Source: an uncultured Thermoleophilia bacterium
Lineage (GTDB): Bacteria > Actinomycetota > Thermoleophilia > UBA2241
Length of the DNA: 64,000 bases
Direction of reading: 5' to 3'
NCBI GenBank assembly: GCA_964533575.1
Contig: CAZHMG010000003.1
Span: 10,276 to 74,275, forward strand
In this document: positions 9,266 to 54,576 of the stretch, one piece after another
Numbering within the stretch: the first letter of the stretch is position 1
Layout: every line of letters begins with the position of its first letter
Position numbers and translations under genes: made by a program
Notes under the pieces: generated by a model
Seen by the model: only the letters and a program-made list of their open reading frames with translations
What the model was told of the DNA's origin: nothing
Database searches by the model: none

Positions 9266-10257
9266 CCCAGAATGATCGGCTGATTCGCCGACTCCTCGCG
9301 GATGTGGCGCCCCGTGTACTTCAGAAAGACATCGTCCAGAACCGGACGGCTCATGTGGAGGCCCACCACCCGGAGTCCGTCACCCTCGAGCCGGCGCAGG
9401 ACTTCCGGGATGGCCGCGCCGGCGTCCGGCACCGAGAGGCTGACGCCGGCCGGATGCGAGGTCACTGCGTCCGCGGGCACCGTGCCCGCCAGCCGGCTCC
9501 GTACGGTGGAGGTGACGTCGTCGCCGTGCGGCTCCATCGCCAGGACCACGGTGTCCGCGCCCACGCTCGCCTTGAGCCTCTCCGGCGTGCCGTCCACGAC
9601 GATCCTGCCCGCGTCGATGATCGCGAGCCGCGAGCAGAGACGGTCCGCTTCCTCCATGTAGTGCGTTGTCAGCAGCATCGTCGTCCCCGCCGCGTTGATG
9701 CGCTCGAGCTCTTCCCACAGCGCGGTGCGGCTCTGCGGGTCCAGGCCCTCGGTCGGCTCGTCAAGGATGAGCAGCGAGGGCCGGTGCATGAGGGCGGCCG
9801 CCAGGTCGAGACGGCGCTTCATGCCGCCCGAGTACGTGCCTGTCAGCTTCTTCGCGGACTTCGTGAGCCCCATGAGCTCGAGCAGTTCGTCGCTGCGGCG
9901 GCGGATCTCCCGGGCTGGCAGCCGATGCAGCCGGCCGGCCAGCTCGAGCGTCTCGCGTCCGGTTGAGAAGGCGTCGAGCGTCGGTGTCTGCAGTGCGATC
10001 CCGAGCCGCTTGCGCACCTCCCGCGGCTGACGGCACACGTCGTGACCCGCAACCGCTGCCACGCCGGACGTCGGGCAGAGGAGGGTGGCCAGGATGCGGA
10101 TGGTCGTCGTCTTGCCGGCCCCGTTGGGTCCGAGAAAGCCGAACAGTTCGCCGGCCGCGACCGAGAAGCTGATCCCGTCGACGGCGCGTGTCTCGCCGTA
10201 GACCTTGACCAGATCGCGCACCTCGATGATCGGCATCTCGTCCACAGTGGGCATCAT
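9259..10257 (-). CDS. ABC transporter ATP-binding protein (DrrA-like)
   Basis: Has Walker A GPNGAGKTTT, signature LSGGMKRRL and Walker B LLILDEPTEGLD. The start is taken at MMPTVDEMPIIEVRDL. Confidence 0.9.
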   Translation of the reverse strand: MMPTVDEMPIIEVRDLVKVYGETRAVDGISFSVAAGELFGFLGPNGAGKTTTIRILATLLCPTSGVAAVAGHDVCRQPREVRKRLGIALQTPTLDAFSTGRETLELAGRLHRLPAREIRRRSDELLELMGLTKSAKKLTGTYSGGMKRRLDLAAALMHRPSLLILDEPTEGLDPQSRTALWEELERINAAGTTMLLTTHYMEEADRLCSRLAIIDAGRIVVDGTPERLKASVGADTVVLAMEPHGDDVTSTVRSRLAGTVPADAVTSHPAGVSLSVPDAGAAIPEVLRRLEGDGLRVVGLHMSRPVLDDVFLKYTGRHIREESANQPIILGW

Positions 10258-10386
10258 GGAGGCCTCAGGCCCTCCTGCGCAAACCCGTGCGCAGACGGCA
10301 TCTTCGTGCAAGGGAGGCGGGCACCGGCAGCGTGAGAAGCCCGGGGCGGAGGCTTTCACTCCGGGCTTCTCACGAAACCCGATCGT

Positions 10387-11554: not shown

Positions 11555-13510
11555 ATGAGCGGGATGACCCCTGATGACGTGTTCGCTCTGCGTGCGGCGG
11601 CTGATCCGCGCATCTCTCCTGACGGCGGCACGGTGGCGTACGTCGTCCAAGCAGTCAATCGCGAGGGGAATGCCTACACGAGTGCGATCTGGCTGCAGAG
11701 GGTCGACCGCTCCAAGGAGGCGCGTCAGCTCACCCGCGGCGAGAAGCAGGACGGCGAGCCGCGATGGTCGCCCGACGGTACGCGGCTCGCCTTCACATCC
11801 AATCGTGACGGGGACACGGCCCAGCTCTACGTGCTTCCGCTGTGCGGCGGCGAGCCTCGCAAGCTCACTTCACTCGAGGAGGACGTGACCGAGGCGACGT
11901 GGTCGCCGGACGGCAGTGCCATCGCCTTCGTTGCTCGGGTGCGCGACGCCGCCTACGACGAGAAGGACGAGCGGCGTCGCGCTCCCCGGCGTATCACCCG
12001 GCTACAGTACAAGCTTGAGCATGTCGGTTGGACTGCCGACAGGCCGCGGCACGTCTTCACCGTCGCGGCCGATGGATCCGGCGAACCGGTACAGCTCACG
12101 GCCGGCGATTTCGAGGACGCGGGACCTTCGTGGTCCCCGGACGGCGAGCAGATCGCTTTCGTCTCTGCCCGCCACCCCGACTGGGACACGGACACCGTGC
12201 GCGACGTGTACCTGGTCGACAGTGCCGGTGGAAAGCCGCGGCGGCTCACGCCGGGCGGTGCCGCCGTCGAAATGGTCTCCTGGTCGCCCGACGGACGGCG
12301 TCTGGCCGCGCAGCACTACGAGGGCGTCCTCGATGATCCGCGGCACACGCAGATCGCCGTCGTCGACGCCGAGACGGGCGCCGTGCAGGTGGTCACAGGC
12401 AGCCTCGACCGCAACTGCGGCGCCTACCCGCAGCTTCGCGAACCGTTGTGGGAGGGCGACGACCTCGTCTTCGCCGTCGAGGATCACGGAAACACGCACC
12501 TGTATCGGACCGGCGCCGACGGAACAGGGATCCCCCGGCTCGTCGTCGGCGGAGACCTCGCCGTGACCGGTTTCGATCTCGTCGCCGGACGGCTCGTCTA
12601 CGCGGCCTCGCCCCCGACCCGGCTGCCAGAGCTCTTCACCGCAGAGCGTCGCTTGACGGGCGTCGGCGACGCGTTCGCCGAAACGCGCCTGCTCAGCGAG
12701 CCGGCGCGTTTCACGGCCCGGTCGGCCGACGGGACGGAGGTCGAGGCCTGGGTCATGAAGCCGGCCGGCTGCGAGACCGGCCTCACCTGTCCCACCCTGC
12801 TGTGCATCCACGGCGGACCGTTCACTCAGTACGGCAACCACTTCTTCGACGAGTTTCAGGTGTACTGCGGCGCCGGCTTCGCGGTCGTCTACGCCAACCC
12901 GCGCGGCTCGTCCGGCTACAGCGAGGAATGGGGACGCGCCATCCGTGGCGACGGGACGAGTGGCGACGGCTGGGGGTCTGTCGACTACGAGGACTGCATG
13001 GCGGTCATCGACGAGGCCGTGCGTCGCTTCGACTTCATCGACGGCGACCGTCTTGGCGTGATGGGCGGCTCCTACGGCGGCTACTTGACGTCCTGGATCG
13101 TCGCCCACACGAACCGGTTCAAGGCCGCCATCTCAGAACGCGCCGTCAACCAGCTCGTCTCCCAGTGGGGCTCCAGCGACTCGGGATGGGATCTCCGGGG
13201 CTACATCGGATCGTTTCTGCACGAGGATGTGGAGGCCTACCTGCGGTTGTCGCCGGCATCGTACGCCGCGCACATCCACACGCCGCTCCTGCTGCTGCAC
13301 TCCGAGGAGGATCTGCGCTGTCCCGTCGAGCAGGCGGAGCACCTCTTCGTGACGCTGCGTCTGCTGCGAAGGCCGGTGGAACTCGTTCGCTTTCCCGGAG
13401 AGTCGCACGAACTGACGCGCTCGGGGAGCCCGATGCACCGGGTCCAGCGCTTCGAGATCGTGCTCGAATGGTTCGGCCGCTACCTCAAGAGCGAAGCGCC
13501 ATCCGGTTGA
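11555..13510 (+). CDS. S9 family peptidase (prolyl oligopeptidase / acylaminoacyl-peptidase-like, beta-propeller + alpha/beta hydrolase)
   Basis: Repeated WSPDG propeller motifs are followed by GGSYGGYLT (catalytic Ser) and C-terminal Asp/His segments. AAAGAGAGG SD precedes ATG 11555. Confidence 0.9.
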
Positions 13511-14170
13511 TCGTGCTCGCCTGATCGCCGGCGCCGAAACCGTTGTCGAGACTGACGACAGAGAAGCCGGGCGAGCAGGAGTTCATCATCGGGAGCAGCG
13601 CCGCGATGCCGCCGACGTTGGCCCCATAGCCGATACTGGTGGGCACCGCGATGACCGGGCATGAGACGAGTCCGCCGACGACGCTGGCCAACACTCCCTC
13701 CATGCCGGCGAACGCGACGATGGCGTTGGCTCGTTCCAGCGTCTCGCGCTTATCGAGGAGACGATGAATGCCGGCGACGCCGACATCGCGTTCGACCGCA
13801 CTGCCGGCGCACTCCGCCGTGAGCGCCGCCTCCTCGGCCACCGGGATGTCAGATGTGCCCGCGCTACAGACGCAGACGCAGCCCTCGAGCGGGATCTCGA
13901 CAGGGTTCACGACGGCAAGCCTGACGGCCTCATGGATCGGGCGGGGACGTGCTCGGCCAGCGCCGCCAGTACGTCCGGCGTCGCCCGGGTGGCGAGGACG
14001 TTCGTGTGGCCGTGGTCCACCATGCGCTGCGCGATCGCCACGACCTGCGCCGTGCTCTCGCCGGCGCAGAAGATGGCCTCGGCGTGGCCGCGTCGCAGGC
14101 GTCTTCGAGCTCCAGATCATCGTTGCGCACGGCGAGCAGCAGCTTGCGCAGTTCTTCTCGCTTTATGACA
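13485..14170 (-). pseudogene. larB: larB homologue (nickel-pincer cofactor biosynthesis, PurE-like) disrupted by at least two frameshifts
   Basis: Three minus-strand frames each carry consecutive LarB segments. The N-terminal ...[18 protein letters not shown] is in one frame. [52 protein letters not shown] follows in a second frame and ends in a stop. [35 protein letters not shown]...[64 protein letters not shown] is in the third (ORF 13485..14120). No larC or larE is nearby. Confidence 0.6.
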
Positions 14171-14197
14171 CGCTTCCCGGCCCTTGGAGTCTTCGTC

Positions 14198-15121
14198 TCA
14201 TGGGGACGGCGAAGCAGCCGTCAGCGGCAGCGGGATTTTGACGACATGGGTGGGGAGACCGCTGGCGGCCGACGGCTCGAAGAGCTCGAGGACGATGCTG
14301 GACGAGGGCGCGATGAATCTCATCGTCGCGTTGAACGTGCCCCGCGTCCCCGAGCCCGATGTCGCCATCACGCTCTCCTCGACCAGCGTCGTTCCGCTCG
14401 CGTCGCGGACGCGGATCATGAATTGGGCCTCGAAGGTGTTGGCTGTCCCTTGAACGACGAGCGGACTGGCGACCCGATCGCCGACGGCGGGCCGCTCGAC
14501 GAAGATGGCCGGGGTGACGTCCTCGAACGAGCGGCGTGTCTGCGGCTGGCGTTGCGGCTCTCCTTCGCCGCTCCGGAAGACGAGGGGCTCACCGGCGACA
14601 CGAAAGCGCACGCCGTCGACTGTGGGGAACTGCGTCAGCGTGTAGACGATCTGAGCCAGCCTGGCCCTGTCTTCGATCGGGTCGACGCCGGCAACGAACT
14701 CCGGGCTCAGGTCGACGACTGCGAGCCCGTCACGAATCGTGAGGCCCAGCACTTTTGTGCCGGCTGGTATCTGCGTGTGCAGGCCGGCTGCGCGCTCTTC
14801 GCTGGTTGGACCCATGAGCAACTCCTCGAGCGCGGCGCCCGCCGGTGCGTTGGTGGCGGCGATCGCGCGATGTGCGGTCGCGACGAAGGCCCCGCGCAGG
14901 AGGTATACGGAGACTGTCGCTCTCTGCGGCGATGCGGTCGGGGAAGGGCTCGGCGCGCCCGACGTGGGGGAGGGCAGGGGGCTTGCGGTCGGCGAGGCGT
15001 CGCCGGGAGCGCTTGCCGAGGGTGTGGGACTTTCGTCGCTGCGGGAGATGCCGCAGCCGCCGAGCGAGAGGAGGGCGACAGTCGCGAGCAGGATGATGAT
15101 GAGTGAACGCGATACGCCCAT
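14198..15121 (-). CDS. GerMN domain-containing lipoprotein (Gmad2/LpqB-like)
   Basis: The start MGVSRSLIIILLATVALLSLGGCG gives a signal peptide plus lipobox. It is followed by a Pro/Ser/Thr-rich linker, a GerMN-like region (LLRGAFVATAHRAIAATNAPAGAALEELLMGPT) and a C-terminal beta-rich domain. Confidence 0.75.
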   Translation of the reverse strand: MGVSRSLIIILLATVALLSLGGCGISRSDESPTPSASAPGDASPTASPLPSPTSGAPSPSPTASPQRATVSVYLLRGAFVATAHRAIAATNAPAGAALEELLMGPTSEERAAGLHTQIPAGTKVLGLTIRDGLAVVDLSPEFVAGVDPIEDRARLAQIVYTLTQFPTVDGVRFRVAGEPLVFRSGEGEPQRQPQTRRSFEDVTPAIFVERPAVGDRVASPLVVQGTANTFEAQFMIRVRDASGTTLVEESVMATSGSGTRGTFNATMRFIAPSSSIVLELFEPSAASGLPTHVVKIPLPLTAASPSP

Positions 15122-16609: not shown

Positions 16610-17800
16610 TCAGGAGGACGGCGACAGCAGGCCGTTGCCCACCGCGACGACGAGCCCTGCCGCGATGCCGCAGCGCCGGCTCACCGAGGTGAGATCGATG
16701 CGCTCATCCGGCGAGTGATCGTCGGCGCCGACCGGTCCAAGACCGTCGAGCGTGGGAATGCCCTCTGCCGCCGTCCAGCAGCCGTCGCTCATGCCGCCTG
16801 AAGTCTCGCCTTTGAGCGGGCGTCCCAAGGCGGCGGCGAGGGCGATGGCGGCATCCACAAGGCGGCCGCCCGCAGGCGACGGCTCGATGCCGGGCCACCG
16901 CCCATCCTGCGCGAGCTCGATTCGCAGGCCGTCGTAGCCGGCGAAACGGCCCATCTGCTCGAGCGCCCAGCGCACGTCTTCGCCCAGTCGGGCCCGCACG
17001 TCCAGCACAGCTTCGGCTTTGCCGGGGACGACGTTCGGTATTGTTCCCGCCGTCAATCGCGTGAGTGTGACGGTGAGTCCGGGGCGTCCGCCGCTCAGGG
17101 CCGCGCAACGCAGCGCCTCGCGGCAGAGCGCGAGCGCCGCGTTCCGGCCGCGTTCCGGCTCGGTGCCGGCGTGAGCCGCCCTGCCATGTACGCTGAGCCG
17201 GACCCAGGCCCCCGTCTTGCGCCCGTCGACGATGTTGCCGTTCTCGCGGCCGCACTCGAAGACCAGCGCGGCGTCGGCGCCGCGTACGAGATCCATGGTC
17301 GCAAACGGCGCTTTGCGCACCTCCTCGTCCGGCACGCTGTGGAGCTCGACGGCGGGCAGGGGCACGTCAGCGGCGAGCAGCGCTTCCATGACGGCCAGCG
17401 CCACGAGCAGGCCGCCTTTCATGTCGGCCGTCCCCGGGCCGCGAGCGATGTCGTGATGGACCGTCAACGGTCGTTCGCTCGCTGTGCCATGCGCATACAC
17501 GGTGTCGTGATGTCCGAGCAGGACCACGCGCGAGGGCAGACGGCCGGGGAGAGCAGCGCGGAGGAACAGGCCGGGGGGGCGGTCGAGAAGCTCGACCGCC
17601 AAGCCGGCTGCGCGCCCCCATGCGGCCAGCAGCAGAGCCGCCCTGTCCCGACCGGCCCGGTCGTCGGGACCGCTGTCGATTGCCGTCAGCTGGCGCAAGC
17701 GCTCGATGTAGCCCGGCAAGCGGCCTTCGCAGTGCCGCTGGGCGAACTCGGCCGCGGCAGAGGCCGCTTCCATTGCGCCGGCATCAGGTCTGGGGTTCAT
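16610..17800 (-). CDS. M20 family metallopeptidase (ArgE/DapE/CPG2-like)
   Basis: LLGHHDTV...ADMKGGL...HSVPDEE metal-binding motifs and an M20 dimerisation region are present. The start is uncertain (MNPRPD or the downstream MEAAS). Confidence 0.8.
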   Translation of the reverse strand: MNPRPDAGAMEAASAAAEFAQRHCEGRLPGYIERLRQLTAIDSGPDDRAGRDRAALLLAAWGRAAGLAVELLDRPPGLFLRAALPGRLPSRVVLLGHHDTVYAHGTASERPLTVHHDIARGPGTADMKGGLLVALAVMEALLAADVPLPAVELHSVPDEEVRKAPFATMDLVRGADAALVFECGRENGNIVDGRKTGAWVRLSVHGRAAHAGTEPERGRNAALALCREALRCAALSGGRPGLTVTLTRLTAGTIPNVVPGKAEAVLDVRARLGEDVRWALEQMGRFAGYDGLRIELAQDGRWPGIEPSPAGGRLVDAAIALAAALGRPLKGETSGGMSDGCWTAAEGIPTLDGLGPVGADDHSPDERIDLTSVSRRCGIAAGLVVAVGNGLLSPSS

Positions 17801-46261: not shown

Positions 46262-46750
46262 ATGGCGCGCGAGACCGGCATCAAGAGAGTCGCGGAGAAC
46301 CGCAAGGCCTTCCACGACTACTTCATAGACGAGACGTACGAGGCGGGGATGGCGCTCGTAGGCACCGAGGTGAAGTCCCTCCGTGAAGGCCGCATCAATC
46401 TGCGTGACAGCTTCGTCGAGGTCAGGGGGGCGCTTCATGCCCCCGAGCTCTACCTCGTCGGAGCGCACATCAGCCCCTTCGCCCAAGGCAACATCTGGAA
46501 CCACGAGCCGTTGCGCTCGCGCAAGCTGCTGCTGCACCGTCAGGAGATCGAGCGCATCGCCCAGCGCGTCCGGGAGCGCGGCTACACGGTGGTTCCCACG
46601 AAGGTCTACTTCAAGGACGGGCGCGCCAAGATCGAGATAGGGCTGGCGCGCGGCAAGAAACTGTACGACAAACGCCAGGACATGGCTGAGCGCGACGCCA
46701 AGCGAGATGTCGAGCGGGTCCTGCGCGGGCGGGGGGAGGACGGCAGGTGA
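46262..46750 (+). CDS. smpB: SsrA-binding protein SmpB
   Basis: IKRVAENRKAFHDYFIDETYEAGMALVGTEVKSLREGRINLRDSFV...LLLHRQEI...KIEIGLARGKKLYDKRQ. Confidence 0.9.
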   Translation: MARETGIKRVAENRKAFHDYFIDETYEAGMALVGTEVKSLREGRINLRDSFVEVRGALHAPELYLVGAHISPFAQGNIWNHEPLRSRKLLLHRQEIERIAQRVRERGYTVVPTKVYFKDGRAKIEIGLARGKKLYDKRQDMAERDAKRDVERVLRGRGEDGR

Positions 46751-46752
46751 GG

Positions 46753-47031
46753 ATGGAGAGACTGAGTGACGCACAGAGGGATGAGGCGATTGGCCGCCTC
46801 GCCGGATGGAGCGCCGACGAGGCCGCGCTGACCCGCACGGTGCGCTTCGCCGACTTCGTCCAGGCGATGGATTTCGTCAACGAGGTGGCCGACCTGGCCG
46901 AGCGCCACAATCATCACCCGGACATCGACATCCGCTACAACAGGGTTACGCTGCGGCTCTCCTCACATGACGCCGGTGGCGTCACAGAGCGCGACGTCGC
47001 GCTGGCGAGGGCCATCGACCACCTCGCATGA
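46753..47031 (+). CDS. phhB: 4a-hydroxytetrahydrobiopterin dehydratase (pterin-4-alpha-carbinolamine dehydratase, PCD/DCoH)
   Basis: LAGWSADEAALTRTVRFADFVQAMDFVNEVADLAERHNHHPDIDIRYNRVTLRLSSHDAGGVT. AGGTGAGG SD lies before ATG 46753. Confidence 0.8.
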   Translation: MERLSDAQRDEAIGRLAGWSADEAALTRTVRFADFVQAMDFVNEVADLAERHNHHPDIDIRYNRVTLRLSSHDAGGVTERDVALARAIDHLA

Positions 47032-47156
47032 CGCCGGGCCCGGGCCGACCCGGCTCCGTTCAACGCACATCGGCAGCGGCCATCATGGGTGGCCGCTGCC
47101 GATGGTGCGTTACCGTGACTCTCTGACGCCGCGACCGCGGCGTGGGGTCAGGCCCC

Positions 47157-47372
47157 TCAGGTGAAGCCGCAGCCGGCGGGCGCCGCGCAGCTGCCGGCCG
47201 ACGCCGAACTCGCCGATGACGACGTCCCGCCGCACATGAAGCTCGTGAACTTCTGCTGCACATCCGTGGAGCCGCAGGCGGGGCACTGCTTCTGATCGTC
47301 CTTGAGAAACCCCATCGAGAACACTTCGAAGACGTTGTCGCAGGAGCGACAGGTGAGATCGTACGTTGCCAT
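47157..47372 (-). CDS. FmdB family zinc-ribbon protein
   Basis: MATYDLTCRSCDNVFEVFSMGFLKDDQKQCPACGS... is followed by a Ser/Ala/Cys tail, the typical FmdB architecture. Confidence 0.7.
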   Translation of the reverse strand: MATYDLTCRSCDNVFEVFSMGFLKDDQKQCPACGSTDVQQKFTSFMCGGTSSSASSASAGSCAAPAGCGFT

Positions 47373-47405
47373 GGACCAAGCATCCTTTCCGAGATCAGTC
47401 TGAGC

Positions 47406-47600
47406 TTACACCACTGCCGCCACGGGCCTCACCTCGAACGTTCGGCAGACGAGAGCGCACGAGCCACACTCGGTACAAAGCTCGTACTCGATCCGGGGGG
47501 CAGACGTGGCGGTATCCTGGATGATCGCGCCCTGAGGGCAGCAGGAGACGGCTGGGCAGCGATGATTCTTGGGACAATGCTGGTCGTTGACGACGATCAT
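47406..47600 (-). CDS. 4Fe-4S ferredoxin
   Basis: MIVVNDQHCPKNHRCPAVSCCPQGAI...CTECGSCALVCR. AGGAGG SD is upstream. Confidence 0.75.
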   Translation of the reverse strand: MIVVNDQHCPKNHRCPAVSCCPQGAIIQDTATSAPRIEYELCTECGSCALVCRTFEVRPVAAVV

Positions 47601-47618
47601 GCGCGTTCCTCCTGCCTG

Positions 47619-47643
47619 ATACCCTTAGGGGTATAAAGTATAC
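47619..47643. promoter_or_regulatory. AT-rich inverted repeat / candidate operator in the divergent ferredoxin-capA intergenic region
   Basis: ATACCCttagGGGTAT (6-bp arms) is immediately followed by TATAAAGTATAC. This is a conspicuously AT-rich island in a 70% GC background. Confidence 0.3.
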
Positions 47644-49128: not shown

Positions 49129-49509
49129 CTAGCTGTCTGTCATGGCGGCGATGAACGCCGACGCGAATGCAGACTCCAGCCTCTCGAAGCAGGCGTCGAG
49201 ATCCATCTCGGGACCCCGGGTGCGGATCTGCGAGGTGGTGAGGTCGAGGCGCGTCGCCACGCTCCTGCCCGGGGTCCAGGCGGCGGCGCGGCGCAGGCCC
49301 CAGCCGATCGCCTCGGTCACGAGGACGAACAGGACGAGGACCAGCAGCCCGATCGCCACGAAGAGGAGTTCCTGGACCGCGGACTCCGCCGGGACGGCGA
49401 ACAGCACGCCGAGCAGCGCGATGCTCGCGAACTCGGCGACGGCTCCGCCGGCGACGACGAGGGCCCCCACGTCCGAGTGCAGGTTGTGGGTGTCGCGGAG
49501 CACCGGCAC
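49129..49509 (-). CDS. Hypothetical small membrane protein (126 aa, 2 predicted TM)
   Basis: Very high GC3. It has two hydrophobic helices (ALVVAGGAVAEFASIALLGVLFAV, LLFVAIGLLVLVLFVLV). It is divergent from the K+ channel gene. Confidence 0.5.
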   Translation of the reverse strand: MPVLRDTHNLHSDVGALVVAGGAVAEFASIALLGVLFAVPAESAVQELLFVAIGLLVLVLFVLVTEAIGWGLRRAAAWTPGRSVATRLDLTTSQIRTRGPEMDLDACFERLESAFASAFIAAMTDS

Positions 49510-49607
49510 GGGCGCTCACTTCTCTTTGGGCCTCCGAGCGGGCCTTGGTCGTGAGTGGCGAATACTCATGCAGCCAGCGTCCGCAGTCCCGCCCGTGAGG
49601 AGGCACC

Positions 49608-50345
49608 ATGCCGAGCCAGAAGAGACACCTCCTGTTCGACGATCGGTCCAGATACCTGGACAGGTTCGGACTGGTTCTGGCGCTGACCGCCATAGCCATC
49701 GTGTCGCTGGCACTCTTCGACCTCTCGGCGTCAGTCGGCGACCTCGTTGCCGGCGTCGCATCCGTCGGGACCAGCGTCCTCGTCGGCGTCACGTTGCTGC
49801 TGGCGCTGCGCGCGTCCGGACTGAGACTCAAGTGGCTGCGCGTTGCCGACGTGCTCGTAGCCCTGTTCCTCACAATTGTGGTCGTCCAGATCACCTACGG
49901 CCTGGCCACGGACACCGCGTTGTTCGCCCGGGAGGCCACCCGGCCTCTGACGCTCCTCATCCTCTCCGCGTTGGCGCCGATGGTGGTGGTGCGGCGTCTG
50001 CTGCAGCACCGCTCCGTCACGACGGGGACGCTGTTCGGCGCCATCTCGGCGTTCCTTCTGATGACCATCGCCTTCTGCTACGCGTTCCTCAGTATCGACG
50101 GGCTGCAGGCGACGCCGTTCTTCGCGCAGGCTCAGCCGACTACGTCGTTCATGTACTTCAGCCTCAGCACCATCACGACGGTGGGTTACGGCGACCTGAC
50201 TCCGATCACGCCGCTTGCGCGGCTGGTCGCGACGGCCGAGGCCGTGTCCGGGCAGGTGTACCTGGTGACTTTTGTCGCCATGCTCGTCGGCCTGCGGGCC
50301 CAGCACCTGGTCTCCGCCCGGCACTCGGACACGACGAACGAGTAG
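49608..50345 (+). CDS. Potassium channel family protein (pore loop with TVGYGD selectivity filter)
   Basis: Multiple TM helices are followed by the pore helix and signature YFSLSTITTVGYGDLTP. AGGAGG SD is upstream of the ATG. Confidence 0.8.
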   Translation: MPSQKRHLLFDDRSRYLDRFGLVLALTAIAIVSLALFDLSASVGDLVAGVASVGTSVLVGVTLLLALRASGLRLKWLRVADVLVALFLTIVVVQITYGLATDTALFAREATRPLTLLILSALAPMVVVRRLLQHRSVTTGTLFGAISAFLLMTIAFCYAFLSIDGLQATPFFAQAQPTTSFMYFSLSTITTVGYGDLTPITPLARLVATAEAVSGQVYLVTFVAMLVGLRAQHLVSARHSDTTNE

Positions 50346-50480
50346 CGGGACGGCGCGGCGCCGTGCGCCGACTGAGGCGCCCGCCGCCGCGCCGTGCGAG
50401 CGCTGCTCGCTCGAGAACCGCTGCCCGCTTCCTGTCCCACGGGTGCGTGCTGCCCCTCGGATCGCGAGGTGCCGTCGTCG

Positions 50481-51000
50481 TCAGACGGGCCTGACGACGG
50501 CGGCGGTGCCCGACACGGTCACCAGAAACATCGAGGTGTTGGTGCCGACGCCCTCTAGGTCTATCGAGGTGGCGACGACGGCCTTCGCGCCGAGGTCCTC
50601 AGCCGCGGCTGCATCTCGGCCATGGCCTCGCTCTGACTCTTGTCGATCTCCTCCTCGTAGGCGCCGGCGCGGCCCGCCGCCGAGGTTGCGGCCGAACGCT
50701 TTGAAGTCCTTGCCGACATCGACGCCGTGGATCGCAGCGCCGCTGACCAGGCCCTTGTAGGCGGTGGCGAGCGCCAGCCAGAGGATCATGGCGCCGCCCA
50801 TGTCGCCGAGGTTGACGTAGTCAAGGCCGAGCAGCGCCGCGATGAAGACCAGGATCGGCAATCCCCCCCGATGATGGTCGCCGGGTTCGCGGCGATGGCG
50901 TCGTAGTCGATCCCCATGATCGCCTCGAGGGCGAGGATGAGGAACGCGCACCCGATGCCGATGATCCAGGCCACGCTCGGCCGCGGATTGACTCTCATGA
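50481..51000 (-). pseudogene. YbjQ/UPF0145-like heavy-metal-binding domain protein with N-terminal TM extension, disrupted by about three frameshifts (one in a C7/G7 homopolymer)
   Basis: The N-terminal MRVNPRPSVAWIIGIGCAFLILALEAIMGIDYDAIAANPATIIGG continues after a shift at the homopolymer (plus strand ccccccc at 50866-50872) as LPILVFIAALLGLDYVNLGDMGGAMILWLALATAYKGLVSGAAIHGVDVGKDFKAFGRNLGGG. Two further shifts are then needed to read AGAYEEEIDKSQSEAMAEMQPRL and ...DLGAKAVVATSIDLEGVGTNTSMFLVTVSGTAAVV, which resembles the intact YbjQ at 52726..53061. Confidence 0.55.
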
Positions 51001-51757
51001 TGGAACCCTCCGGTGACAACCCGCTGTCGGCGACCCATCTCGGGCCGTCGTCGCCGCGACCTTGGCCGCATCGGAACATGGCGGCGGCGCTGGATCATCC
51101 GGTCAGACTCGCGCGATGGCGTCACCGCGTCACGCGTAGAATGGGACGTCATCTATTCGCTGAGCCGGGAGTAGCCGACGCTCGTGAGGAACCGTCCTCT
51201 CGCGTCCACCGGCCGACTCATCGCCCCTGACGCCGGCCGCGGTCGGTCGGCCGCCTACCGGCATGGACCCGGCGCTGCCAGAGTCCTTCAGACGGCGGTT
51301 GCGCCACGTTGATGAGATCGTGGCGCAGCCCGAGATCCGCCGGGAAGTCGCAGCGCGGATGTATTCTCCCGTCGCCCGCCAGGTGTCTACGAGGAGTCGG
51401 CGGACGTCGCGGTTGTCGGCTTGGTCGTCGTTGGCGGTGGTGATCACCGCGATAAATCCTGCCGCAGGATGCGCCTCGGCCGCTTGGTCGGCGGCCGTCT
51501 TGACAAGGACCTAAATGGATGCGAGGGCGCGAGTGGATACGCCGGGGTAGATGTGTTCGGTGGCGCCGCCGCCGCTCGGTAGGGAAATGTCTTGGGATAC
51601 GCGAGAAGAGGTTGCGGAAGGCGCTGCCGAGGGCGTTGGGCTTTCCCTTGACACCATGCCGGGGCCCGTCATGGTGCGGGATAATAGCATCACTCTCGGT
51701 TTGGCAGAGAACCGAGACGCCCGCAGTTCTGGACTCTTCGTTGTTGAGGGAGATGAC

Positions 51758-52681
51758 ATGCTCGCAGTGATTGACGCTGTCGGTGAGAGTCTTCTCGGTC
51801 CGAGTCGCGCCGCCGTCGCGGCCTTCACGCTGGGCTTGCTCGTAACCTTCCTCGCCGTGCGCATCAACACGCGCTTGATCAGGGCCAGAGTGAGTTGGTG
51901 GTTTCACGATATCGAGTCCGACAGCGGCCTCCACGTCCACCACATGGTGATCGGCGTCGTCCTCATGGTGGCCAGCGGACTCGGCCTCATCGCGCTCTCG
52001 CCACACGGCCTCGCTCTCCAGGGCGGCGCGTTCATTTTCGGTGTGGGCGTCGCCCTCACGCTGGACGAGTTCGCTCTCATCCTGCGCCTCCAGGACGTCT
52101 ACTGGACGACCGAGGGACGTCTCTCGGTCGACGCGATCGTCGTCGTGATCTGCACGGGAATCCTGCTCCTGCTGGGCGCGACGCCGCTCGGCTTCGCCGA
52201 CTTCGGAGCGGTGTCAGGGGCGGCGGCATACGCCCTCGTTTCCGTCACTCTGCTCGTGCACATCTGCGTGGCCGTGGTCTGTCTCTTGAAGGGGAAGATA
52301 TGGACCGGCTTCTTTGCGGTGTTCATCCCGATCGTCGGAACAGTCGGGGCCATCCGGGTGGCGCGGCCGGATTCACCCTGGGCGCGCCGGCGCTACGAGG
52401 ATAAGCCGGCCAGGATGGCGAATGCCCGCCGCCGGGAGGATCACATGAACGCGACCTGGCGCGCCTGGCGCGAGGCCTTCTTCGATCTGATCGCCGGGAA
52501 GCCGCATCTGCCCAGTATCATGAGCATCGGCGCCAGGGCATCAGCCCCGAGCCCTGATGAGGGTCGTCCACATCCTCCCGCTCCCGCGTTTGGCGAGGGG
52601 GACGGTCAGGCAGGGGACGACGTTCCGCCGCCGGCAGGGAGAGGGCGTCAAGCCGGTGGGAGTAGCAGCGGCGGTGGGTGA
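51758..52681 (+). CDS. Hypothetical integral membrane protein
   Basis: Start at MLAVIDAVGE with GAGGGAG SD. It has 6 or more TM helices (WWFHDIESDSGLHVHHMVIGVVLMVASGLGL...) and a Gly/Pro-rich disordered C-terminus. Confidence 0.55.
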   Translation: MLAVIDAVGESLLGPSRAAVAAFTLGLLVTFLAVRINTRLIRARVSWWFHDIESDSGLHVHHMVIGVVLMVASGLGLIALSPHGLALQGGAFIFGVGVALTLDEFALILRLQDVYWTTEGRLSVDAIVVVICTGILLLLGATPLGFADFGAVSGAAAYALVSVTLLVHICVAVVCLLKGKIWTGFFAVFIPIVGTVGAIRVARPDSPWARRRYEDKPARMANARRREDHMNATWRAWREAFFDLIAGKPHLPSIMSIGARASAPSPDEGRPHPPAPAFGEGDGQAGDDVPPPAGRGRQAGGSSSGGG

Positions 52682-52725: not shown

Positions 52726-53061
52726 CTACTCGATGGTCACGGCCGTGCCGCTCGCCGACACCATGAGCATGCTGCCGTTCTGGCCGACCGTCTCGTAATC
52801 GAGGTCGACGCCGATGACGGCGTTGGCGCCAAGAGCGACCGCCTCAGCCGTCAGTTCGTTGAGCGCGATCTCCTTCGCCTGCTTGAGCTCGCGCTCGTAT
52901 GCCGCGGAACGCCCGCCGACGATGTCGCGCACGCCCGCGAACAAGTCCTTCACGATGTTCGCGCCGAGGATCGCGTCGCCGCTCACCAGGCCGTGGTAGG
53001 CGATGATTCGCCTGCCCTCGACGCTCGGCGTGGTTGTGACGATCATGGCGCTGTCACTCAC
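52726..53061 (-). CDS. YbjQ family protein (UPF0145 / DUF74 heavy-metal-binding domain)
   Basis: [88 protein letters not shown]...[13 protein letters not shown]. Confidence 0.8.
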
Positions 53062-53100
53062 GGCAGCCTCCCTTGTGTTCTCTGGTCCTGTTCATGTTGT

Positions 53101-54576
53101 TCAGACCCCGGCCGCCGCGCTCACACGGCCGGCATCGACTGCTTCTGTGAGAGTCTCGTAGTCCCGCTGGTTCTGGTCCGCGTACGCGTCGGAGAAGTCG
53201 GCAATGGCTTTGTCGAAGGTGCTGCCGCCGCCCATATAGCCGGCAATGGCGATGCGATCGCCCGTGCGCGCGTGGGCCTTGGCGAGCGTCCACGCGCAGA
53301 GGTGAGCATAGGGTGCCCATGTGCTCTCGTCCATGGCCTCCATATCGAAGGCGCCCTTGCCGTCCCAGAGCTGGCGCACGTAGAAGTCGTAGGGCCTGCC
53401 GTCGAAGCCGACGACGTGGTACCAGCCGAGCAGCATGTCGCTGGCGGCCTGCATCAGACGCTGGCCCTCAACGACGCGGCGGCCGGCGTTGTCGTAGCGG
53501 CTGCTGCCGGCGAAGCGCTCCAGAACCGAGTCCCGCGCCTGTTTGGCCTGCAGGATCAACGGGTCGTTCTCGTCGCGTCCGAGGAAGAGCAGCACCCAGG
53601 CACGGGTCCCCACGCTGCCGACGCCGACGATTTTGCGGGCGATCTCCTTGTACCGGTAGAGGTCGTAGAGCGGTCGGCGATCGGCGGGGAGACTCGCGCG
53701 ATAGCTCTGCAGCGCCATCTCGACCGCATGCCGGTAGTCGTCCCGCTCTTCTCCCTCGAGCAGCTCGTCGGCCGGGACGAGGATGGGCGGGATGGAGCGA
53801 AACCGGGGCCGCCCGCCGGCGACGTGCGTCAGTCTGGAGAGAGCCCTCAGCGAGTCCCTGCCGGTGGCCTTGCTGAGGACGCGGTCGACTTGGGACCGGC
53901 CGCGGCTTCTGCTCAGGGTGGCGCGAACCAACTCGGCGTCGAGGCGCGCGTACCACACGTCGATGGCCCGCATTCCGGCCAACTCGGCCATGGTCTCTCT
54001 GTATGACTTCACGCACGAGAGAATGACGGCGCGCCTCGTCGAGGCCGACAGGCCACGCTCGCGGCCCGCGATCTCGAAGCCCGCGGCGAGACGCTTCACG
54101 TCCCACTCCCACGGCCCGGGGAGGGTCTCGTCGAAATCGTTGATGTCGAACACCAGATGGCGCTCGGGAGACTGGAAAAGGCCGAAGTTCATGAGGTGCG
54201 CGTCCCCGCAGAGCTGCGCATGCAGTCCGGAAACCGGTGTGCTGGAGAGATCGCCGGCCATGATCAGGGCGGCGCCGCGATAGAAGGCGAACGGCGACGC
54301 GAGCATGCGGCCATATCTGATCGGCACCAGATCCGGATCTCGTTCGGCCGCCTGTTCCTCGAGCAGGTCCACCGGGTTCGGACGGTCAGGCCTAGGCTCC
54401 CAGGAAGCGTGGCTCGATCGCGGCGCCGTCTTGCGCGCCTCCCTGCCATGGCTGGCCCGGGCAGCCGGAGTGTCCTTGGGAGCCTGGAAGATCGCCGGCA
54501 ACTCGGCCGCGGCGCCTGAAACGGCCCCCGGTACGGGCGCTTCAGTGGGCGCAATGGATCCTGGTGCGTCTCCCAT
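53101..54576 (-). CDS. DUF2252 domain-containing protein
   Basis: YGRMLASPFAFYRGAALIMAGDL...LCGDAHLMNFGLF...FDINDFDET is the characteristic DUF2252 N-terminal signature. 491 aa. Confidence 0.75.
   Translation of the reverse strand: MGDAPGSIAPTEAPVPGAVSGAAAELPAIFQAPKDTPAARASHGREARKTAPRSSHASWEPRPDRPNPVDLLEEQAAERDPDLVPIRYGRMLASPFAFYRGAALIMAGDLSSTPVSGLHAQLCGDAHLMNFGLFQSPERHLVFDINDFDETLPGPWEWDVKRLAAGFEIAGRERGLSASTRRAVILSCVKSYRETMAELAGMRAIDVWYARLDAELVRATLSRSRGRSQVDRVLSKATGRDSLRALSRLTHVAGGRPRFRSIPPILVPADELLEGEERDDYRHAVEMALQSYRASLPADRRPLYDLYRYKEIARKIVGVGSVGTRAWVLLFLGRDENDPLILQAKQARDSVLERFAGSSRYDNAGRRVVEGQRLMQAASDMLLGWYHVVGFDGRPYDFYVRQLWDGKGAFDMEAMDESTWAPYAHLCAWTLAKAHARTGDRIAIAGYMGGGSTFDKAIADFSDAYADQNQRDYETLTEAVDAGRVSAAAGV

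Follow-up and report, generated by a model that had tools for sequence, protein, structure and literature searches.

YbjQ/UPF0145 proteins (PF01906, YbjQ_1) consist of about 103–111 residues starting with M[IL]VTTT, and the domain is complete when positions 1–103 of the profile are covered. Solved structures of the family include 1Y2I (Shigella S0862), 2GTC (B. cereus BC_1816) and 1VR4; P0002, an intact relative of the locus described here that covers positions 1–106 of its profile, matches these PDB entries with E values from 5e-28 to 2e-23. Among the best matches of a literature search, judged by titles and abstracts, no paper names YbjQ or UPF0145. The CPBP/Rce1-like (type II CAAX, or ‘Abi’) intramembrane metalloproteases, PF02517, are marked by three signature motifs, EExxxR, FxxxH and HxxxN/D. 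Two kinds of locus offer further points of comparison. In the deletion/fusion pseudogenes of bacteria, neighbours on the same strand are collapsed by internal deletion, further indels and substitutions are present, and the ancestral codon-position bias is still visible. In homopolymer contingency loci, a change in the length of a tract in the 5′ part of a frame alters that frame.

The locus studied here occupies positions 50481–51000 on the minus strand of a 64,000-nt stretch of DNA (the window; GC 67%) from an uncultured Thermoleophilia bacterium. The initial annotation described it as a gene for a membrane-anchored YbjQ-like protein inactivated by three frameshifts. The analysis presented here indicates that it is very probably the dead remnant of an adjacent protease gene and ybjQ gene, merged by deletion, and hence an ordinary multi-lesion pseudogene. 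It shares all the features of deletion/fusion pseudogenes listed above and differs from them in nothing unusual; an in-frame fusion and compensating indels have left an ORF that is catalogued as P0001. The features of the locus and its flanks are collected in Table 1.

Table 1. Features of the remnant and of its surroundings; positions are those of the window.
Position	Strand	Feature	Evidence
49608..50345	+	Ion_trans_2 channel gene, convergent with the remnant	PF07885; synteny anchor downstream
50481..50606	-	ybjQ codons 68–108 and stop (50483–50481)	Frame-2 similarity and alignment; GC3 0.90
50481..50861	-	P0001, TTG-started open frame, 126 aa	Source NCBI; sequence identical to the translation of the window
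50607..50608	-	-1 deletion after ATGCAG, restoring the 3′ frame	CAGC-CGCGGCT vs L015 CAGCAGGCAGCC; covered by L008
50609..50671	-	ybjQ codons 46–66 (RAGAYEEEIDKSQSEAMAEMQ), out of frame with both flanks	Frame-0 translation
50673..50675	-	+1 insertion, GGG for GG in GGC-GGCCGC	Aligned vs L013, L015, L002; L008 100% identical
50676..50759	-	ybjQ codons 17–44 (YKGLVSG...FGRNLGG)	Aligned to L013 (89% nt), L015, L002; GC3 0.89
50759..50760	-	Junction of deletion 2, protease codon 121 joined in frame to ybjQ codon 17	L015 nt 552–1075 absent
50760..50858	-	CPBP codons ~89–121 (PILVF...WLALATA), frame differs from that of the first piece	tblastn, P0031 residues 88–121
50859..50869	-	Junction of deletion 1: G7 (C7 on the + strand, 50863–50869), then ATT	Piecewise alignment, net 124 nt missing
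50870..50998	-	CPBP/Rce1-like codons 1–43, ATG at 50998–50996, first TM helix	tblastn, P0031 residues 1–45
51006..51011	-	Shine-Dalgarno-like GGAGGG, 7 nt 5′ of the protease ATG	Read from sequence
51758..52681	+	Gene for a conserved membrane protein of 307 aa, transcribed away from the protease remnant	63% aa identity to the L002 275-aa gene
52726..53061	-	Second ybjQ gene, intact and of another subtype (111 aa), 1.7 kb from the remnant	PF01906 131 bits, positions 1–103

Frame changes and lesions at the locus

Protein similarity switches frame three times between 51000 and 50481, which shows that the frame changes are real and bears out the three that had been read on the minus strand. Frame 0 runs from the ATG to the G run (MRVNPRPS...ATIIGG), frame 2 from the G run to about 50673 (LPILVF...FGRNLGGG), frame 0 again over 50671–50609 (RAGAYEEEIDKSQSEAMAEMQ), and frame 2 again from 50606 to the stop (AAEDLGAKAVV...VVRPV). 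GC3 in the ancestral frame is 0.89–0.97 in all five pieces. The positions given earlier need some correction. The C7 run had been placed at 50866–50872, three nucleotides from where it lies, and the frame change at ggcggcggg, which is present, is at 50681–50673 rather than about 50690; the third change, given as near 50610, agrees with the site found here.

Against the intact pairs of L014 and L015, four lesions are seen: two deletions and two single-base indels. The deletions, of net 124 nt and about 524 nt, had been overlooked when three simple frameshifts were taken to be the full set. Correcting the frames also does not yield the continuous YbjQ-like protein that had been expected: the N-terminal 76 codons are CPBP/Rce1-like, and ybjQ begins only at its codon 17. 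In all, the 5′ 229 nt of the remnant derive from a CPBP-type gene and the 3′ 279 nt from a 108-codon ybjQ. The lesions were mapped by piecewise blastn; a global MAFFT alignment against the intact pairs had misplaced the 5′ pieces. Promoter, terminator and repeat scans of 50250–51650 gave nothing informative, and no long direct repeats were found flanking the deletions.

The protease-derived part

With the PF02517 protein P0031 as tblastn query, only residues 1–45 and 88–121 match in the window, with E values of about 1e-12 each. For residues 122–268, which carry EExxxR (position 127), FxxxH (156) and HxxxD (204), there is no tblastn match anywhere in the 64 kb. The Pfam PF02517 domain spans residues 112–209 of P0031 and is almost wholly deleted in the remnant, and the repaired translation gives no match to PF02517. 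Homology of the N-terminal part to PF02517 members is nevertheless present, and nucleotide identity to the CPBP genes of five loci is 76–90%. The first piece (GC3 0.95) is 82% identical by blastn to L001 9985–10129 and 83% to L004, and a hydrophobic helix is predicted at residues 12–30 of its product; the second (GC3 0.97) is 84–90% identical to L001, L003, L004 and L015. A CGGAGGG motif precedes the ATG in L002, L003 and L001 copy A as well. Compared with the CPBP/Rce1-like family, the remnant keeps the start codon, the Shine-Dalgarno sequence, TM1 and part of TM3/TM4, but none of the three signature motifs.

The ybjQ-derived part

The 3′ part is 89% identical at the nucleotide level to ybjQ of L013 and 85% to that of L014 and L015, and the repaired translation is 72–84% identical to 26 YbjQ homologues over the aligned part. 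Both single-base indels were defined against three relatives. They cancel, yet the 21 codons between them stay out of frame; GC3 of this stretch falls from 0.95 when it is read in the ancestral frame to 0.35 when it is read as in the present ORF. The reading frame through the YbjQ domain is interrupted at both sites (+1 at 50673–75, -1 at 50607–08). PF01906 scores 40.7 bits (E 3.8e-10) for the present ORF and 71.8 bits after frame repair, with a cutoff of 23 bits, and even after repair only profile positions 15–103 are covered, whereas the intact paralogue in the window covers the profile from position 1. In comparison with the YbjQ/UPF0145 family, codons 1–16 are lacking, codons 46–66 are frame-shifted and five otherwise invariant residues are altered.

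These five substitutions (T to A, V to G, G to A, L to F and V to A) fall at columns that are invariant in the 26 homologues, 25 of which have at most one change at such columns. They indicate that constraint on the sequence has been relaxed, independently of any indel.

Deletion junctions

Deletion 1 was defined against two references. Relative to L001 copy A, 133 nt (10130–10262) are replaced by 9 nt; relative to L015, 130 nt (323–452) are replaced by 6 nt. It takes out CPBP codons ~46–87, comprising TM2 and the WWRP...PPRW loop, so that 42 codons are missing. The junction sequence reads ATCATC-GGGGGGG-AT followed by TGCCGATCC, and can also be given as ATT followed by GCCGATCC. Since the G7/C7 run lies at the deletion junction, the frame change there does not amount to slippage in a gene that is unbroken elsewhere, and its earlier description as a plain homopolymer event does not apply. 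The frame across the junction would be restored by G8 or by G5.

Deletion 2 removed about 524 nt (552–1075 in L015, in which CPBP spans 189–995 and ybjQ 1028–1354). Protease residues 122–268, the spacer and ybjQ codons 1–16 are gone. Logan contig L008 spans the junction and shows 100% identity with the window.

P0001 and the hydrophobic N-terminus

The frame-repaired 172-aa translation was used as query in the homology search. Its N-terminal half matches the N-terminus of the 268-aa PF02517 proteins P0029–P0031, and the only protein that shares both halves is P0001, which sits on the same 80,723-bp NCBI contig as the proteins of the neighbouring genes. A phmmer search of P0001 against 1.84 billion representatives returned CPBP matches at residues 1–46 and YbjQ matches at residues 32–126, and no protein matching both halves other than P0001 itself. 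P0001 is a chimeric pseudogene fragment.

These results bear directly on the reading of the locus as one membrane-anchored YbjQ gene inactivated by three simple frameshifts, which is almost certainly wrong. It agrees with the data in that the frame changes fall near the three places named for them, and N-terminally extended YbjQ proteins are known elsewhere (for example P0038, P0044, P0066 and P0073); the extended proteins inspected, however, have unrelated soluble or zinc-ribbon-like N-termini. The N-terminal segments here match CPBP at 43–59% amino acid identity, and 80–90% nucleotide identity to the genes of relatives, with the 42 codons missing between them, and the YbjQ domain starts only at profile position 15. 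The combination of the two halves is, P0001 aside, absent from the representatives searched. Close YbjQ homologues, among the matches listed, are nearly all soluble proteins of 106–108 aa that start with MIVTTT, and none of those aligned has a hydrophobic N-terminus. The hydrophobic segment of the remnant is the stump of the upstream CPBP gene, fused by deletion to a 5′-truncated ybjQ.

Intact relatives and the ancestral gene pair

A comparison with related loci, proposed as a check in the initial annotation, was run. In five loci, L001 (copy B), L002, L003, L014 and L015, ybjQ is immediately preceded by a CPBP gene on its own strand, and 24–32 nt separate the two. Of these loci, L014 and L015 have intact copies of both genes, encoding 268 aa and 108 aa. 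The remnant therefore has intact syntenic counterparts (L014 and L015, with flanks as in L002, L003 and L013), against which its four lesions are disabling.

The flanks of the remnant recur in these relatives. The upstream membrane gene of the window serves as the synteny anchor on that side, its 275-aa counterpart in L002 being likewise divergent from CPBP-ybjQ; downstream, the channel gene points towards ybjQ in L013 and towards CPBP in L004 and L001. The neighbourhood is nonetheless fluid: in L002 the entire block is turned around with respect to Ion_trans_2. L013, the closest relative of the ybjQ part, has no CPBP gene upstream of ybjQ; in L004 and L001 copy A, CPBP is present and ybjQ is missing. 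Given these exceptions, the adjacency of the two genes in the lineage of the window is drawn from the more distant loci together with the flanking synteny. The nearest match in a scan of genome contigs was the Thermoleophilia MAG MFD03899.bin.2.132, at 42% amino acid identity, and at 81–88% nucleotide identity in shared genes. Positions 51401–51631 of the window gave a weak blastn match to a DUF5684 gene of L002, which found no support by tblastn and was dropped.

The CPBP-ybjQ pair often looks damaged among the relatives (L001 2838–3118; L002 and L003 9160–9976; P0028, P0036, P0040, P0046 and P0114), through either repeated decay or errors in the assemblies. One of the two genes may have a single frame break, one YbjQ of 74 aa has an internal deletion, and other chimeric ORFs end in the C-terminal half of YbjQ. 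The recurrence of the adjacency in this Thermoleophilia-like clade, often in a degraded state, is a weak hint that the two genes are linked and dispensable.

Decay or sequencing error

Ongoing gene decay, homopolymer-type sequencing errors and phase variation had been offered in the initial annotation as explanations for the broken frames. The evidence favours the first of these.

It is very unlikely that the genes are intact in the organism and that the frame changes were introduced by indel errors of the homopolymer type or by wrong joining in the MAG assembly. The Logan assemblies of SRR13723393, -94, -96 and -97 are 100% identical to the window over all bases covered, and the same holds for contigs L007, L009 and L010–L012. 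L008, from run SRR13723394, is 100% identical over 49426–50813, and it reproduces deletion 2 and both single-base indels exactly, so that three of the four lesions are confirmed by an independent assembly. The exception is the junction of deletion 1 with its C7 run, which speaks for the error reading as far as it goes: L008 ends at 50813 and L010, from the same run, at 50954, and the junction falls within the 140 nt between them (50814–50953). The ENA contigs L001–L003 also carry single-base breaks of their own in CPBP or ybjQ, so errors or decay are common in data from the clade. Exact-protein look-ups of P0001, the 223-aa ORF, the 97-aa ORF and the 211-aa larB ORF gave no match from independent sequence, and that of the 307-aa neighbour returned the same contig only.

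Losses of 124 and about 524 nt, on the other hand, are not homopolymer errors, and the single-base indels lie in GG/GGG and after CAG, outside long runs. The five changes at invariant YbjQ positions are independent of any indel, and even a product read through C8 would be without the protease motifs and the 5′ end of ybjQ. Every other ORF checked in the window gives an undivided, single-family Pfam match: ftsE, ftsX, the M23 and S41 peptidases, RNase R, smpB, PPK2, an M20 peptidase, RNase PH, Ham1, QueT, MurI, two EamA genes, GH65, trehalose phosphatase, DUF2252 and PGA_cap. The one other broken gene is larB. The clustering of the lesions in two genes, instead of a scatter over many, is the pattern of pseudogenes rather than that of an assembly-wide indel error, and together with the agreement of L008 it supports real decay over general sequencing error.

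The second broken gene, larB, lies within 13485–14250 (-), with a frame change near 13900–13930. Its frame-0 ORF (13488–14162, -) matches the NF033503 LarB equivalog at positions 63–209 with 191.5 bits; with the upstream frame-1 piece joined, the match extends over positions 6–209 and reaches 237.9 bits, and at least one frame change is therefore real. Of the earlier call of a multiply frameshifted larB, this part stands; a second frame change, with a small deletion near 14100–14170, lies outside the profile support and is likely. larB stands alone, with no lar operon, among genes for an S9 peptidase, a Germane/Gmad2 protein, an F420_oxidored-like protein and sepF.

The homopolymer run

The remaining explanation is that slippage from G7 to G8 switches on a membrane-tethered, YbjQ-like chimera of 172 aa, making the locus a contingency locus or a newborn fusion. 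We consider this exceedingly unlikely. One extra G does open a 172-codon frame, linking the protease ATG and its Shine-Dalgarno sequence to the stop of ybjQ, and that much of the earlier phase-variation proposal holds; deletion 2 is in frame and the two single-base indels compensate each other, so that a 223-codon ORF persists. Spurious ORFs of 200–450 codons are, however, common in this window of 67% GC, where long open frames arise by chance, and the 223-codon frame is taken to be one of them. The product of the ON state would be chimeric, without YbjQ codons 1–16, with 21 scrambled codons in the long helix region and with five changes at invariant sites, and has no homologue of the same architecture among the 1.84 billion representatives searched.

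As in homopolymer contingency loci, the G7 tract lies in the 5′ part of the frame and a change in its length alters the frame; unlike in those loci, the ON state encodes no intact protein of a known family and the tract coincides with a deletion junction. A tract of seven is also short for a contingency locus, which counts against phase variation. The rarity of such runs, with two G/C runs of at least 7 in the window against 40.7 expected from shuffles, could be read in favour of a switch, but a tract left behind where a deletion joined DNA under no constraint would account for it equally well. When JGI metagenomes were searched for exact matches with G5–G9 permitted, none was found.

There is a correspondingly minimal chance that, with G8, the chimera is alive as a two-helix membrane protein of 172 aa with a remodelled YbjQ C-terminal half, born by deletion and fusion. 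Selection instead of chance would then account for the fusion in frame and for the indels that compensate each other, and the locus would count as a newly formed gene that the homopolymer may switch, with G8 arising from slippage or from an assembly that is one G off. The G run was also considered as a site of canonical -1 ribosomal frameshifting, and this was rejected: by the sequence and general knowledge of such sites, the C that precedes the run precludes an X XXY YYZ heptamer, and the downstream product would be non-functional in any case.

In the 64 kb as a whole, the two G/C homopolymers of at least 7 nt lie at 17573–17579 and 50863–50869, and base-composition shuffles give 40.7 ± 6.2; long G/C runs are strongly avoided in the window. 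The run at 17573–17579 is inside the M20 peptidase ORF, which is undivided in Pfam.

Neighbouring genes

The intact YbjQ paralogue upstream of the remnant is as the initial annotation had described it. Its product matches NF002776 at 173.9 bits, above the cutoff, and an identical protein is encoded in Logan contigs L010–L012. In the window (52726–54576, -) a DUF2252 gene is followed by this 111-aa YbjQ, and in L014 (6001–7865) and L016 (285–2044) a 108-aa YbjQ is followed by DUF2252; from these opposite arrangements, YbjQ and DUF2252 recur as neighbours in different orders.

The 307-aa protein encoded at 51758–52681 (+) is a multi-pass membrane protein without a Pfam match and is conserved in L002, L003 and L016. 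Its homologue is divergent from CPBP-ybjQ in L002 and L003 and adjoins DUF2252 in L016.

Elsewhere in the window, within 46290–47640, smpB is intact and the 0.9 kb downstream of it holds no convincing ORF; neither ARAGORN nor an Rfam gathering search found a tmRNA in the 64 kb. In the Thermoleophilia-like contigs L002 (15914–18629; ENA ERZ25039459) and L003 (11818–13530; ENA ERZ25039503), MTTB is accompanied by a Dimeth_Pyl gene for which two ORFs, of 344 and 110 aa, are called. The split in Dimeth_Pyl could be an in-frame UAG, as in methylamine methyltransferases of the pyrrolysine type, or a mere frame break.

Proposed history of the remnant

The remnant in all probability derives from a cassette of two genes, in which about 268 codons of CPBP/Rce1-like protease preceded a ybjQ (UPF0145) of 108 codons, and no longer functions. 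From the lesions and coordinates observed, we infer both their order and the loss of function. A net deletion of 124 nt within the protease gene removed TM2 and the loop that follows it and shifted the frame. The larger deletion, which covers about 524 nt and reaches from codon 122 of the protease into ybjQ as far as codon 16, took out the catalytic motifs, the spacer and the first strand of YbjQ, fusing the protease and ybjQ in frame by chance. The other two lesions are a +1 insertion in ybjQ and a -1 deletion 66 nt downstream of it in the same gene.

The retained ribosome-binding site and ATG could yield at most a one-helix peptide of 70 residues, which would be incapable of either protease or YbjQ activity. 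Relaxed selection is the likely cause of the decay, and the presence of an intact YbjQ paralogue 1.7 kb away is possibly what relaxed it.

Implications

The remnant descends from two known families, YbjQ/UPF0145 and CPBP, and by the defining features of each it is a functional member of neither. A pseudogene formed from a collapsed pair of neighbouring genes is an ordinary finding, and its value here is mainly practical, in a corrected annotation and in some reassurance on the quality of the assembly, which looks trustworthy at this locus. The broken genes are local and carry multiple lesions, in contrast with a widespread indel error, so the annotation of the rest of the window need not be discounted. 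The recurrence of the CPBP-ybjQ pair in relatives, often in a seemingly degraded state (L001–L003, P0028, P0036, P0040 and P0046), as yet says nothing about function. Small proteins with a soluble domain can owe a hydrophobic N-terminus to what is left of an adjacent gene, which calls for caution with architectures read from raw sequence, and P0001 should not seed a ‘membrane YbjQ’ family.
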